Shown: positions 16,651-23,488, counted from the first letter of the stretch. The stretch is DNA of 64,000 nt from Armatimonadota bacterium (GCA_049969495.1 JBMFOT010000008.1:2136-66135), one strand, 5' to 3'. Made by a program: numbers and translations. The notes: generated from the sequence alone by a model not told the origin.

Positions 16651-16679
16651 TTGACAACGCTGGAGGAGGGTGTTATACT
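16651..16679 (+). promoter_or_regulatory. Consensus sigma70 promoter of the LacI-pilin transcript
   Basis: TTGACA-17 nt-TATACT with extended TG. Confidence 0.85.
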
Positions 16680-16684
16680 CTATT

Positions 16685-16708
16685 CGAAACGTTTCGCGAA
16701 ACGTTTCT
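16685..16708. promoter_or_regulatory. Tandem LacI-family operators
   Basis: CGAAACGTTTCG followed directly by CGAAACGTTTCT. 16686-16707 is a perfect 22-bp palindrome over the predicted TSS. Confidence 0.8.
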
Positions 16709-16721
16709 CAAGGAGAAGTCT

Positions 16722-17756
16722 ATGCCTGCTACTATCCGCGACATCGCGAAAAGGCTGGGCATCTCGGTGTCTACCGTCTCTTATGCGTTGAACGGTGGAC
16801 CCCGTCCCGTGCCCGAAGAGGTGCGCCGGCGCGTGCTGGAGGTCGCCCGTGAGCTCGACTACCGTCCGAACCGGCTTGCCCGCTCGATGGTAACCGGTAA
16901 GACCGAGACCATCGCCGTGGTGCCGCCGATGGTCACGCGCAACATGCTTCGTTCCCCCTATATCCACGCGACACTGTCGAGTATCGCCGATGCGGTGGGC
17001 GAACACGGGTATGACATCCTGCTGCACACCTCCGCTGCCCCGATGGACGATGCGGAACTGGTGCAATCGCTGCTCAGTGGCAAAGTGGACGGTATCCTGC
17101 TGATCGCCCCTTTGAGCACCTCGCAAGCACCGCAGGAGCTGCGTCAACGCGATGTCCCCTGCGTGGTGGTATCGGCACGGGTAGAGGGGTTGCCCTCTGT
17201 GTGCGCAGACAACACCGCAGGTATCTTTGCCGCGATGGATTGGCTTTACGCACATGGACACCGCCGTTTCGGCTTTATCGGCGGTCCTCCCGCTTTTTAT
17301 GATGCACGCCAGCGTCTGCTTGCCTTCCGACGGTATCTGGAGGAACATCACCTGCCTCTGCGTAGCGAGTGGATTGCTGAAGGGGACTTCACCGCACGGG
17401 GTGCAATGAACGCAGCACGAGCGATGCTCGCTCTACCGGAACGCCCCACGGCGATTCTGGCGGCGAACGATGAGACGGCGGCTGGCATCTTGCAGGTGGC
17501 TCAGGAGCTGGGACTGCGTGTGCCCAACGACGTGTCGGTAGTGGGCTTTGATGATACGCCGTTCGCGCAGGTGCTATCGCCTCGCCTGAGCACGATACGA
17601 CAGCCATTGGAGCGGATGGCGACCGAAGCGGTCAACATGCTCGTGGCGTGGATAGAGCGACGCGAACCACCGACAGGAGAAGAACGGATATTCCCGACGG
17701 AGCTGGTGCTGCGGGAAAGCACGGCGCCAGCTCCGGGTTTAGTATCTCAATCATGA
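16722..17756 (+). CDS. LacI-family transcriptional regulator
   Basis: TIRDIAKRLGISVSTVSYALNG HTH, YRPNRLARS hinge, VPNDVSVVGFDD. RBS AGGAG at 16711. Confidence 0.95.
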   Translation: MPATIRDIAKRLGISVSTVSYALNGGPRPVPEEVRRRVLEVARELDYRPNRLARSMVTGKTETIAVVPPMVTRNMLRSPYIHATLSSIADAVGEHGYDILLHTSAAPMDDAELVQSLLSGKVDGILLIAPLSTSQAPQELRQRDVPCVVVSARVEGLPSVCADNTAGIFAAMDWLYAHGHRRFGFIGGPPAFYDARQRLLAFRRYLEEHHLPLRSEWIAEGDFTARGAMNAARAMLALPERPTAILAANDETAAGILQVAQELGLRVPNDVSVVGFDDTPFAQVLSPRLSTIRQPLERMATEAVNMLVAWIERREPPTGEERIFPTELVLRESTAPAPGLVSQS

Positions 17757-17770
17757 GGAGGTAACACACG

Positions 17771-18557
17771 ATGAAACGCAACGGCTTTACGCTCATCGAG
17801 CTGCTTGTAGTAATCGCGATTATCGCGATACTAGCAGCGATCCTGTTCCCCGTCTTCGCACAAGCGCGGGAAAAGGCACGTCAGGCGACCTGTCTGAGCA
17901 ACATGAAGCAGATGGGGTTAGCCACGCGCATGTATCTGCAGGACTACGATGAGACCTGGTTCCCCGCCTGGCACAACCGCCCCGAGGGAAACGGGCACTG
18001 GTTCTTCCGCATTTCGCCCTATATCAAGTCGGGCACGGGCGATAACTGGGATACCTACCGGCAGAGCGGCGAAATCCGTATCTGCCCGTCCGGTATCGCC
18101 AAGCGGTTCAACTACAGCATGAACGACCACATCTGCCCGCTGTGGGGCGATTGGGATGGCTGGGTGCACTACGTGCCCGATAGCGATGCCATCTTCACCC
18201 ATCCAGCGGAGACCATCGTGTACGGCGACGGCACGCAGATCGGTGCGTGGGGCTACGATACCTCCGCAAACTTCTGCTGGTGGCCCTCGCAGGAGTTCTG
18301 CTGGTGGGGCAACTTCCCTCAGGGCGACAATGACCCGTTGTGGAAGCTGTTGGACCGCGACCTGAGCGCAAGTCTGGGACGGCAATAACTGGGACTGGAC
18401 GCGAAATCAGGGCTACGGTCAGGTACGCTATCGCCACAACATGACCGCCAGCTTCGTCTTCGCGGACGGTCATGCGAAGGTTATCCGGCGCGGGCTGGTA
18501 AAGGTGCCTTGGAACTGGTCTCTCACCGGCAAAGACGAGAACGACTGGTCCCGATAA
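17771..18557 (+). pseudogene. Prepilin-type N-terminal / DUF1559-like / H-X9-DG protein, frameshifted near 18370
   Basis: [19 protein letters not shown]. First frame stops at 18388; the +1 frame continues VWDGNN...RHNMTASFVFADGHAK...DWSR* to 18557. Confidence 0.85.
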
Positions 18558-18569
18558 GCAAGACATAAG

Positions 18570-18604
18570 AAAGCCCTCCCGCCTCGCGCGGGAGGGCTTT
18601 TTTT
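18570..18604 (+). terminator. Intrinsic terminator after the pilin-like gene
   Basis: AAAGCCCTCCCGC-ctcgc-GCGGGAGGGCTTT followed by TTTT. Confidence 0.85.
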
Positions 18605-18654
18605 CGGCGTTTCTGGAAGGAATCTGCTCGTGCGGAGGATAACCTAACGGCACT

Positions 18655-21359: not shown

Positions 21360-21371
21360 GGAGAGAACAAA

Positions 21372-22316
21372 ATGGCAGTAGAAGTTCGCCTGATACCCGT
21401 TTCGCAGATTGTAGAAGACCCCGAGCAGCCTCGTCGCGGTATGGACGCGGAGAGCCTGCAAGGACTGGCAGACAGCCTTCGCCAGCACGGGATGTTACAG
21501 CCCATCGTGGTTAAACCGCTGCACAACGTGAACATGTATCAGATTGTGATCGGTGAGCGACGCTGGCGTGCGGCACAGATAGCGGGACTGTTCGAAATCC
21601 CTTGCATCGTGCGTGAGGTAGACCCCGAGGAGGCTCTCACCGACCAGCTGATCGAGAACCTGCAACGCGAAGACCTGCGCCCGATTGACCGTGCCCGCGC
21701 CCTACAAACCGCCAAAACACGGCTGGGGCTTTCTAACCGCGACCTAGCGGGGCGTTTGGGCATTAGCGAGCGCATGGTAGGCTATATGCTGGAGTTGCTG
21801 GACCTGCCTGAGGAGATTGCCGAACAGGTAGTTTCGCGTCCTAACCGTCCCGCCGAAGGCGCCATCACCGAAAAACACGCCCGCTTCCTGAAGCAGCTGA
21901 ACGACATGCCAGAAGTGCAGGCGCAGGTGGCGGAAAAAATCAAGAGCGACCGCCTGAGCACCGACGACACCGCCAAACTGGTGAAGGCATTGCGCATGTC
22001 ACCGGAGCGTGCTGAAGAGTTACTGCGTGGTTCCGCGCCCGACTGGGCAGAGTGGATCAACCCGGAACTGCCCCCCCTGCCCGAAGAGGAGACCGCCGCA
22101 GCGCCTGCCTCTGTGGTTGAAACGATAGATAAACCCTTTGCCCCGGCAGCGACCATCGCGCGACAACCCGCCGATGTGGTGCGCAAAGCCATCGAACTGC
22201 TGGGCGAACTGGAACCCGGGCAGATGTCCCCTGAGCAACGTGTGGAAACCGTCGAGGTGCTTCGCTCCCTGCTGATTGTGGCGGAAACGCTCATCGACCA
22301 GCTGATGGAACAGTAG
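21372..22316 (+). CDS. ParB/Spo0J-family CTPase-HTH protein (no adjacent parA)
   Basis: QPRR, LADSLRQHGMLQPI, GERRWRA, LIENLQREDL, HTH LSNRDLAGRLGISERMV. Confidence 0.9.
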   Translation: MAVEVRLIPVSQIVEDPEQPRRGMDAESLQGLADSLRQHGMLQPIVVKPLHNVNMYQIVIGERRWRAAQIAGLFEIPCIVREVDPEEALTDQLIENLQREDLRPIDRARALQTAKTRLGLSNRDLAGRLGISERMVGYMLELLDLPEEIAEQVVSRPNRPAEGAITEKHARFLKQLNDMPEVQAQVAEKIKSDRLSTDDTAKLVKALRMSPERAEELLRGSAPDWAEWINPELPPLPEEETAAAPASVVETIDKPFAPAATIARQPADVVRKAIELLGELEPGQMSPEQRVETVEVLRSLLIVAETLIDQLMEQ

Positions 22317-22324
22317 GGCAGTAC

Positions 22325-22528
22325 AAAAAAGCGGGGTAGCAGTGAAAGGAGAGCAAAGCCTGCTACCCCGAGGAAGGAAGGTGAACTCGGTTCGCTACTA
22401 CGATTATCGGCTGCGAACCTGAGTTTCTCTAGATTATTATACTCGAAATCTACCTGAAAATCTTCCCTTTTTCGCCCCTTTTTTGGTAATATCTCATTCA
22501 GACCAGGCACAGTAACCCGTTGTCACTC
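22325..22528 (-). ncRNA. Candidate small regulatory RNA (about 105 or 205 nt)
   Basis: Minus-strand promoter(s), two hairpins, 11-bp terminator stem followed by U6, CU-rich unpaired segments, no credible ORF. Confidence 0.55.
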
Positions 22529-22534
22529 GTTAGC

Positions 22535-22563
22535 AATATACCATGAAATACTGGTTTTGTCAA
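22535..22563 (-). promoter_or_regulatory. Sigma70 promoter facing the sRNA candidate
   Basis: Minus strand TTGACA(22563-22558)-17 nt-TATATT(22540-22535), extended TG. Confidence 0.7.
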
Positions 22564-22633
22564 GTAGGCACCAATCCCCATGAAATGACTGATACAACAG
22601 CAAAGGATTTAACGGGGTTTTAACCGCCGGTAC

Positions 22634-22662
22634 TTGCATTCGTACGAACAAACAGTTAGAAT
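22634..22662 (+). promoter_or_regulatory. Promoter of the second pilin-like gene, with internal palindrome
   Basis: TTGCAT-17 nt-TAGAAT; TTCGTACGAA at 22639-22648. Confidence 0.6.
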
Positions 22663-22693
22663 GGTAAAGCACAATATCTACAAGGAGGGCAAG

Positions 22694-23488
22694 ATGTCGA
22701 ACACACGACAGGCTTTTACACTCATCGAGCTGCTCGTCGTCATCGCGATTATCGCGATACTGGCAGCGATTCTGTTCCCTGTGTTTGCGCAGGCGCGCGA
22801 GAAGGCACGCTCCGCCTCCTGCCTCAGCAACCTGCGCCAATATGCACTGGCAACCCTTGCCTATGTGCAGGATTATGATGAGACCTTCCCGCAGAGCGTG
22901 TACAGTATGGACCATGCCATTTTGGTGCCGGGTACCGGCGACCGTGTGTTCACCGTGTACGATGCCACCATGCCCTACGTTAAGAACGTGGACATTATGG
23001 TCTGCCCCTCGCATCGCCCCGGCATCGATTTTGTGGCGATTCTGCAGTCGCTGGGGTTAAACGGTAGCGGCAACTTCCGCTACTCCTCGTATGCGTTGAA
23101 CTTCGCTGTGTTTCAGGACCCGGCGGTGCCGCCCGGCTTGTTTAACAACGACCCTGTGGTGAGTTTAGGAGCCATTGGAGAGCCAGCGAATACCACTATG
23201 TTCTACGATAGCACGTATATTCCCCCCGGCGGAACACAGGTAGACCCCATCTGCCGCGTGCCTACCTGTCCGTTTTGCTGGGACAACTTCCCCGCGCATC
23301 CGCGCCATTCCGATGGCTTTAACGTGAACTTCGTCGACGGACACGCCAAGTATTATCAGCGTCGTGGCAATATCCCGGGCACCTCTCCGGCAGGCTCTGG
23401 TGGCGACGCGCCGCCAAGCACGCAGGTACCTACTTACACTCTACCCTGCGATCTGTCGGGCATACCGGGTGGGACGGCGGACACGTAA
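22694..23488 (+). CDS. Prepilin-type N-terminal / DUF1559-like / H-X9-DG protein (intact)
   Basis: [57 protein letters not shown]. Confidence 0.9.

Follow-up and report, generated by a model that had tools for sequence, protein, structure and literature searches.

The segment 16651-23488 of a 64,000-nucleotide stretch of DNA from an Armatimonadota bacterium (GCA_049969495.1, JBMFOT010000008.1; contig C8:2136-66135; hereafter the window) carries, all on the + strand, genes for a LacI-family repressor, a DUF1559/H-X9-DG prepilin-like protein (pilin 1), a polytopic DUF6785/DUF6784 membrane protein, a KaiC-like ATPase, a ParB-like protein and a second prepilin-like protein (pilin 2). A preliminary description had proposed that they form a solute uptake system in which the pilin-like protein takes the place of the permease's binding protein. 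We consider it fairly probable that the locus is instead made of two separable modules in a glycan-foraging setting, and not of one binding-protein-dependent uptake operon. The first module (16651-18604) would be a self-repressed two-gene cassette, and the second (18610-22316) a secondary transporter of the DUF6785/DUF6784 family with an OPT/Yellow-Stripe fold, presumably co-transcribed with the KaiC-like and ParB-like genes. As far as our searches show, the locus exemplifies two recurrent and apparently unpublished themes of the phylum, the self-repressed regulator-prepilin cassette and an expanded family of OPT-fold transporters, which stand side by side here and are not tied to each other.

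The regulator-prepilin cassette

The regulator-to-prepilin pair is a conserved, recurrent unit. In the source genome (3.40 Mb in 179 contigs, with genes called crudely as the longest non-overlapping open reading frames, ORFs) we mapped 52 DUF1559 matches, 12 DUF6785 genes and 17 LacI/GntR-type regulators, the last gathered by phmmer with the window LacI as query. Three further genomes (G022, G119 and G144), from three other families of the phylum, were mapped by coordinate lists; the second stretch of one G022 pilin gene and a DUF6785 fragment of the source genome were dropped. When a regulator is scored as paired if a same-strand DUF1559 match starts no more than 800 nt downstream, pairing is seen for 11/17 regulators in the source genome (by eye one more, at the end of contig C98), 9/18 in G022 and 1/2 in G119, while G144 gave no regulator match. 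The total over the three genomes is 21/37 against 0.22 expected; expected counts here and below are those of random placement. A wider sample, comprising the best Peripla_BP_3 locus from each of 30 genomes of the phylum with the tally read from the rows, has a prepilin signal motif within 355 nt of the regulator stop at 19 of 30 loci, and at 15 of 25 outside the genus. When the sampling starts from the pilins instead, with 80 DUF1559 loci of named public genomes (17 Armatimonadota, 24 Planctomycetota, 26 Verrucomicrobiota and 13 others), the pairing is sparser: a LacI-type regulator lies directly upstream at two of them (one Chthonomonas, one Phycisphaeraceae). Over half of the LacI-type repressors of the Armatimonadota genomes considered here form a pair, in predicted co-transcription, with a DUF1559 gene of their own, and the inducer of each repressor would be a candidate ligand for the head of its pilin, which offers a handle on the very large DUF1559 family. 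We found no paper on this pairing in a literature search that left supplementary files outside its scope. In several other cassettes of the source genome, too, a consensus promoter precedes the regulator and a strong hairpin follows the pilin; the third gene varies from one cassette to another and often has the opposite orientation.

The cassette of the window has the consensus promoter, tandem operators and LacI gene previously described. The predicted sigma-70-type promoter (16651..16679, +) is composed of TTGACA at 16651-16656, a 17-nt spacer and TATACT at 16674-16679, preceded by TG; it matches the consensus at 11 of 12 positions and is the sole + strand site among eight promoter-like sites in 16200-24300, for which shuffled sequences give 3.5 +/- 2.1. 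Two predicted tandem palindromic LacI-type operators (16685..16708, +) follow as copies of GAAACGTTTC at 16686-16695 and 16698-16707, which begin 7 and 19 nt past the -10 box and appear as palindromes with a central CG. This 10-mer is present in three copies in the genome (about 3.2 expected), two of which are those at this promoter, 12 nt apart, and the third within a coding region of another contig; the exact operator has no other intergenic copy in the genome. The repressor (344 aa; 16722..17756, +), whose ribosome-binding site (RBS) GGAGA lies 6 nt before the ATG, includes the Pfam domains LacI (PF00356, 51.1 bits, cut-off 27) and Peripla_BP_3 (PF13377, 151 bits, cut-off 26.5). Its NCBIfam matches are of the RbsR, CytR and PurR types, every one below the equivalog cut-off. 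Since the predicted operators lie just downstream of the -10 box and a gap of 14 nt separates the LacI and pilin 1 genes, control of pilin 1 by LacI is supported and plausible.

In its general organization the regulator resembles LacI/GalR repressors of the RbsR, CytR, PurR and CcpA types, with a helix-turn-helix domain, a periplasmic-binding-protein-like sensor domain and apparent CG-centred palindromic operators that overlap the transcript start. It differs from them in falling below their equivalog cut-offs and in that its sole tightly linked output is a pilin-like gene, not a catabolic or transport gene. A genome search for further operators returned imperfect AAACGTTT-core sites, which are leads and do not define a regulon. 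One such operator-like site, at about 40167-40180 of the window (region 40167-40229), immediately precedes the promoter of a GH13-like gene (40270-42003); another, on contig C30 (L170:2455-2485), is just before the RBS of a gene whose product, a secreted protein of 823 aa, has sub-threshold GH5 and CBM_4_9 matches. These sites could be further targets of the window LacI or of a paralogous repressor.

The first part of the pilin 1 gene (17771..18388, +; 205 aa) encodes a class III signal, the alpha-1 helix and a Trp/Asp-rich head, and ends at a premature TAA (18386-18388). The signal (G-1, F+1, E+5, followed by the hydrophobic alpha-1) is recognized by PF07963 (36.8 bits, cut-off 21.2) and TIGR02532 (35.8 bits, cut-off 16.3), and DUF1559/SBP_bac_10 (PF07596; 37.8 bits, cut-off 23.3) matches residues 31-87 only. 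Of the pilin features in the preliminary description, the leader and the variable head, with 13 Trp and 14 Asp per 147 residues, are in this frame, whereas the H-X9-DG motif (HNMTASFVFADG, 18435-18470) lies in the +1 frame past the stop, within a C-terminal part at 18366..18557 (+); the frame changes at about 18372-18373. TIGR04294 has no match in the window ORF but matches the intact relative P0151 (22.5 bits, cut-off 19). The latter, the nearest database protein, is continuous over its 262 aa; its identity is 92% across the first 201 residues, after which it reads on into the region encoded here in the other frame; the closest homologues carry the source labels Armatimonadota or Chthonomonadaceae.

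Because the H-X9-DG motif falls in the +1 frame beyond the TAA, the pilin 1 gene is interrupted as assembled, by a 2-nt gap; the permease gene is intact. A contig from a related strain has two extra letters after 18373. Pilin 1 is present at six congeneric loci, with the N- and C-terminal parts in one frame at five (G123, G068, G028, G093, G151); at the sixth (G014), at a contig end, the 5' part is in a different frame. In the best-matching sequencing run (Logan contigs) one contig ends at 18364 and none covers 18381-18654, with a summed word depth of about 4-5. The break is private to this assembly and may represent a real mutation (a recent pseudogene) or an assembly error, the latter being suggested by its private nature and by the thin metagenome contigs at this point.

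The strong stem-loop reported downstream of pilin 1 was confirmed. This intrinsic-terminator-like hairpin (18570..18604, +) has a 13-bp GC-rich stem with nine GC pairs and a loop of 5 (18570-18600), followed by a run of 7 T; its free energy (dG) is -29.1 kcal/mol (z -4.7), and 0/200 shuffles are as stable. The same hairpin is found in all five genomes with the pilin directly upstream of the permease gene (G123, G068, G093, G151 and this one). In two other cassettes of the source genome (C20 and C1) the post-pilin hairpin is followed by a new consensus promoter. A search of 16200-24300 with Rfam gave nothing above threshold; a sub-threshold match to ClpQY_promoter (18574-18632, +; 28.9 bits against a gathering score of 42) spans the hairpin and the leader of the following gene.

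In the model that we propose, the LacI repressor would bind the two operators just past its own promoter and, when its sugar ligand is present, repressor and prepilin would be made together, transcription mostly stopping at the hairpin. The prepilin would be cut by the single prepilin peptidase of the genome (one Peptidase_A24 match) and would either stay in the membrane or be polymerised from it by one of several type IV filament machineries; the genome has 12 T2SSE-family matches, five of them within open frames of 455-601 aa. The variable Trp/Asp-rich head would then be exposed, where it most likely recognises the glycan sensed by the repressor, for capture or adhesion. The second module, which may receive some read-through from the first, would supply a proton-coupled importer whose substrate is most plausibly an oligosaccharide or a peptide.

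A predicted OPT-fold transporter and its companions

The DUF6785/DUF6784 polytopic membrane protein (657 aa; 18655..20628, +; DUF6785 369 bits, DUF6784 78 bits) had been described as an OPT-like permease, and comparison of its predicted fold supports this. The AlphaFold2 model has a predicted local distance difference test score (pLDDT) of 92.6 and a predicted template-modelling score (pTM) of 0.93. Against the PDB, Foldseek returned two matches at E <= 0.001, both to barley Yellow Stripe 1 (7wsr and 7wst), the best with E 2e-8, template-modelling scores (TM) of 0.61/0.66 over the whole chain and probability 1.00; the next entry had E 0.06 and TM 0.14. VIA-align (48,161 representatives) aligned 7wsr_A over 546 of 600 residues with Z 24.9 and a root-mean-square deviation of 3.8 A, the next match having Z 5.8. 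At the sequence level, a profile of 114 members (the window protein and 113 full-length sequences from 150 listed; alignment A1) had no match among PDB sequences at E <= 1, the OPT model PF03169 has 0 matches in this genome at E <= 0.001, and the Pfam scan of the protein gave DUF6785 and DUF6784 only. The model supports the view that the protein is OPT/YSL-like by fold; it is not a family member by sequence model. By analogy with barley YS1, whose whole-chain fold its model shares, it would be a polytopic secondary carrier. It differs from OPT/YSL proteins (PF03169) in having no detected sequence relation to them and in its distribution: DUF6785 is bacterial, with 12 full copies and one fragment in this genome, two of the further copies being inside the window, and matches in 127/151 sampled genomes of the phylum.

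Among 1.84 billion cluster representatives, 2748 are relatives of the DUF6785 protein at E <= 0.001, and the 12 copies of the source genome compare with 22 ABC permease-domain matches. If the modelled fold is correct, it names a probable major class of importers. No paper naming DUF6785 or DUF6784 was found in the literature search, supplementary files again being outside its scope.

The companion genes are closely spaced. A KaiC-like single-domain P-loop ATPase (240 aa, 113 bits; 20637..21359, +) starts 8 nt past the DUF6785 stop and is followed by a ParB-like protein with ParB_N and HTH_ParB domains (314 aa, ParB_N 110.5 bits; 21372..22316, +). PADLOC assigned no family to the KaiC-like, ParB-like, DUF6785 or pilin 2 proteins. 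Among the Pfam matches of the locus genes there is no ABC ATPase, TRAP/TTT membrane component or periplasmic-binding-protein family, and the sole ATPase is the KaiC-like protein, which confirms the earlier remark that these co-oriented genes include no ABC ATPase or classical binding protein.

The two DUF6785/DUF6784 paralogues elsewhere in the window are located at 50703-52808 (-) and 57982-59931 (-), and a GH42 beta-galactosidase gene (52826-54787, +; 465 bits) is divergent from one of them. In the source genome as a whole, paralogue neighbours include GH42, GH123, heparinase II/III-like and xylose-isomerase-like TIM-barrel proteins.

Relationship between the two modules

In congeners module 2 is independent of module 1 and has its own conserved leader of about 45 nt (18610..18654, +), which ends in ...TAACCTAACGGCACT before the ATG and is kept in every upstream context. 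A search for the orthologous locus gave 24 places, of which 14 were taken (10 orthologs at 88-98% identity and four sister permeases at 57-60%); one partial copy, eight paralogs at 34-35% and this genome's own copy were set aside. The KaiC-like gene follows the orthologous permease gene in 10/10 congeners and ParB in 9/10; the KaiC-like gene of G123 (L040:3683-3937, -) is internally deleted and is without residues 29-182. Upstream, the LacI-pilin pair is directly adjacent (about 90-100 nt) in 4/10 (G123, G068, G093, G151), 0.7-0.8 kb away in 2/10 (G028 and G014; the insert in a congener reads as a 133-aa ORF on the opposite strand) and missing in 4/10 (G055, G105, G153, G042), where quite different genes are found.

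Prepilin-DUF6785 adjacency is enriched yet rare, and it is not co-inherited. In the source genome 3/12 DUF6785 genes (this locus, C114 and C14) have a same-strand DUF1559 gene directly upstream, and the counts for G022, G119 and G144 are 0/8, 3/22 and 0/9 respectively. At 45 of the 51 DUF6785 genes no pilin is directly upstream, and a DUF6785 gene occurs within 4 kb at 0/80 of the pilin loci sampled in other genomes. The pilin is associated more strongly, and more generally, with the regulator than with the permease. Distances between pilin heads and between permeases show no correlation over the seven non-orthologous pairs (Mantel r 0.22; 969/5040 permutations as high), the r of 0.83 obtained with orthologous pairs included being trivial. 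Directly upstream of the sister permeases (57-60% identity) of G151 and G105 there is a different DUF1559 gene; the head of the sister-locus pilin is at a distance of 0.68 from that of pilin 1, within the range of random pairs (0.63-0.78), for a permease distance of 0.43. Two uncontrolled runs of complex prediction, which combined the permease (A1) with residues 31-262 of the pilin (its head; A2), each scored 0.00 and favour neither reading.

Several observations weigh against the two-module reading. The adjacency itself, found at 6/51 DUF6785 genes against 0.35 expected, is about 17 times chance (Poisson ~2e-6), and G119 has a tandem pilin-DUF6785-pilin-DUF6785 array (L054:2970-8920) with a 53-nt gap. 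No promoter is recognisable within 50 nt, from the T run of the hairpin to the DUF6785 ATG, so the permease gene may need read-through and hence be controlled by LacI. Furthermore, in cassettes C44, C5 and C28 the RBS of a small, co-oriented gene comes immediately after the post-pilin hairpin, and such hairpins therefore need not end the operon. Finally, the link of the permease with glycans is weak in the phylum, since in a sample of 29 DUF6785 loci with 55 neighbour ORFs (L034 being omitted as a copy of this genome) the neighbours are mostly housekeeping genes and only 4/55 are GH39, GH125 or DUF2961; the sample includes NusA, TldD/PmbA (twice), succinyl-CoA ligase (twice), GH39 (twice), GH125, DUF2961 and DUF1559 (twice).

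Part of this evidence suits a single LacI-controlled uptake system, in which the prepilin would capture the solute, as an anchored binding protein or a short pseudopilus, and pass it to the DUF6785 permease while the hairpin tunes the stoichiometry. The genes are co-oriented, 98 nt apart and with no promoter seen after the hairpin; tight pairs recur in G119 (53-nt gap, two in tandem) and at the sister permeases (40-nt gap, L050); and, as noted, co-oriented genes follow hairpins in other cassettes. We nevertheless hold this explanation to be unlikely. The modules are separable within the genus, the LacI-pilin pair being missing or displaced by an insert at six of ten loci; most DUF6785 genes, and all sampled pilin loci of other genomes, do without the partner; the two proteins do not co-diversify over the seven non-orthologous pairs; and of the three pilins that this genome has upstream of DUF6785 genes two are damaged, pilin 1 being frameshifted and that of C14 lacking its N-terminal helix. 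OPT-fold carriers are not known to use binding proteins. Together with the modelled pilin fold described below, these results leave unsupported both an obligate pilin-permease system and the proposed role of the pilin as the permease's binding protein.

At the other extreme, a decaying regulator-pilin cassette might by chance border on an unrelated transporter-KaiC-ParB operon and have no physiology in common with it. The frameshift of pilin 1 suits this, as does the behaviour of the LacI-pilin pair as an insertion or deletion relative to conserved flanks in congeners, the heterogeneity of DUF6785 neighbours across the phylum, and the second pilin upstream of a DUF6785 gene, a remnant: in the decayed cassette on C14 (L007:9500-10560, -) a DUF1559 gene without the N-terminal helix adjoins a fragment that resembles the central portion of a LacI-type regulator, between GH123, ceramidase-like and DUF6785 genes. 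Chance neighbourhood seems to us distinctly improbable all the same. Adjacency is enriched in two unrelated families of the phylum, in five genomes of the genus, this one included, the LacI-pilin pair directly adjoins the orthologous permease gene and the hairpin is the same, and the frameshift, confined to this assembly and to thinly covered contigs (summed word depth ~4-5), is possibly an error.

The modelled fold of the pilin and its possible roles

The fold of the pilin was modelled on the intact relative P0151, from 93 of 120 listed homologues (alignment A2). The model (pLDDT 91.5) has a 50-residue N-terminal helix, a long irregular insert and a C-terminal beta-hairpin bearing the H-X9-DG motif. 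Its leading matches are all type IV pilins or pseudopilins and are weak (PilA4 Z 4.7, EpsG 3.9, PulG 3.5; best Foldseek E 0.32). No periplasmic-binding-protein fold is among the fold matches listed, an absence that is not an exclusion.

The core of the model is as similar to the pseudopilins EpsG and PulG of type II secretion systems as to pilins, and one source labels relatives 'DUF1559 family PulG-like putative transporter'. Pilin 1 might be a sugar-induced pseudopilin of a type II secretion-like machine that exports glycan-degrading enzymes, by analogy with the maltose-induced pullulanase secreton, and have nothing to do with import; the operator-like AAACGTTT-core sites before the GH13-like gene and the C30 secreted protein (sub-threshold GH5 and CBM_4_9), and the presence of several GspE/PilB-type ATPases in the genome, fit such a role. 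We regard it as quite unlikely, given that at least 50 paralogues per genome with hypervariable heads suit recognition better than a piston subunit, that most cassettes are without a secreted enzyme, and that the additional operator-like sites are single and imperfect, with a core common to many LacI-type operators.

A more far-reaching reading would be that DUF1559/H-X9-DG proteins are sugar-specific extracytoplasmic receptors, each under its own LacI-type repressor, with a subset feeding OPT-fold DUF6785 permeases. We consider this very improbable. If true, it would reveal a bacterial counterpart of the archaeal bindosome and a new kind of receptor-assisted secondary transporter.

Comparison with known systems

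With Thermus PilA4, Vibrio EpsG and Klebsiella PulG the pilin shares a class III signal, a long N-terminal helix and, in the model, a C-terminal beta-sheet. It is unlike type IV pilins and pseudopilins in its weak structural scores (best Z 4.7), its loop-rich insert of about 150 residues and its C-terminal H-X9-DG signature, and also in the tens of paralogues per genome and their pairing with sugar repressors. The pullulanase secreton of Klebsiella is maltose-induced and contains one set of pseudopilins within a complete secretion operon. Its pseudopilin genes respond to a sugar regulator, as the prepilin-like genes described here may, whereas here there are many stand-alone regulator-pilin pairs.

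The nearest precedent is the bindosome of Sulfolobus solfataricus, whose sugar-binding proteins are reported to have class III signal peptides (PMC3047682). Both cases would involve extracytoplasmic proteins with pilin signals tied to sugar acquisition. The archaeal proteins are reported to be true binding proteins of ABC transporters with a dedicated assembly system, Bas; the protein described here has a pilin fold by its model and no linked ABC transporter, and belongs to a bacterium.

DUF1559 is the largest paralogous family in planctomycetes. A 2023 paper, which still lists it without an assigned function, counts 68 members in Planctopirus limnophila, of which two are essential (PMC10632474); for Rhodopirellula baltica 74 copies are reported (PMC2754498). 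The source genome has 52 DUF1559 matches. The idea that these are binding proteins is an old one, as is clear from the Pfam name of PF07596, 'SBP_bac_10', and from Wecker et al.

Additional features of the locus

The second DUF1559 prepilin-like gene (pilin 2; 264 aa; 22694..23488, +) is intact, with the H-X9-DG motif in frame by eye, and was found at 6/10 congeneric orthologous loci.

About 16-18 of the 52 DUF1559 genes of the source genome are followed within 80 nt by a gene for a 53-100 aa single-pass membrane protein, examples being L002:3658-3912 (-), L057:5597-5815, L057:6837-7061 and L058:5962-6222. None of the four that were scanned matched a Pfam family. On contig C114 the gene of such a small membrane protein is located between the pilin and the DUF6785 genes. 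The tandem array of G119 is flanked by genes for a DegT-type aminotransferase, an NHL/lactonase-like propeller and a DHDPS-family aldolase.

Upstream of the repressor, a second consensus promoter (16610-16582, -) is divergent from that of LacI. It precedes a 36-codon ORF with a lipoprotein-like signal (-; 16390-16610 region) that ends just past a run of 8 G, beyond which no continuing frame was seen. At the regulator of a congener, a 606-aa open frame was considered as a fusion and rejected, since it is an antisense extension. Nor does any of nine longer relatives of the window LacI have a pilin domain, which is weak evidence against LacI-pilin fusion proteins.

Between the ParB-like and pilin 2 genes, a - strand consensus promoter (TTGACA-17-TATATT, 22563-22535) is followed about 165 nt downstream by an 11-bp perfect hairpin (22332-22370) and a T run on that strand. 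The interval 22332-22563 (-), for which Rfam gave no match, could correspond to a small transcript.

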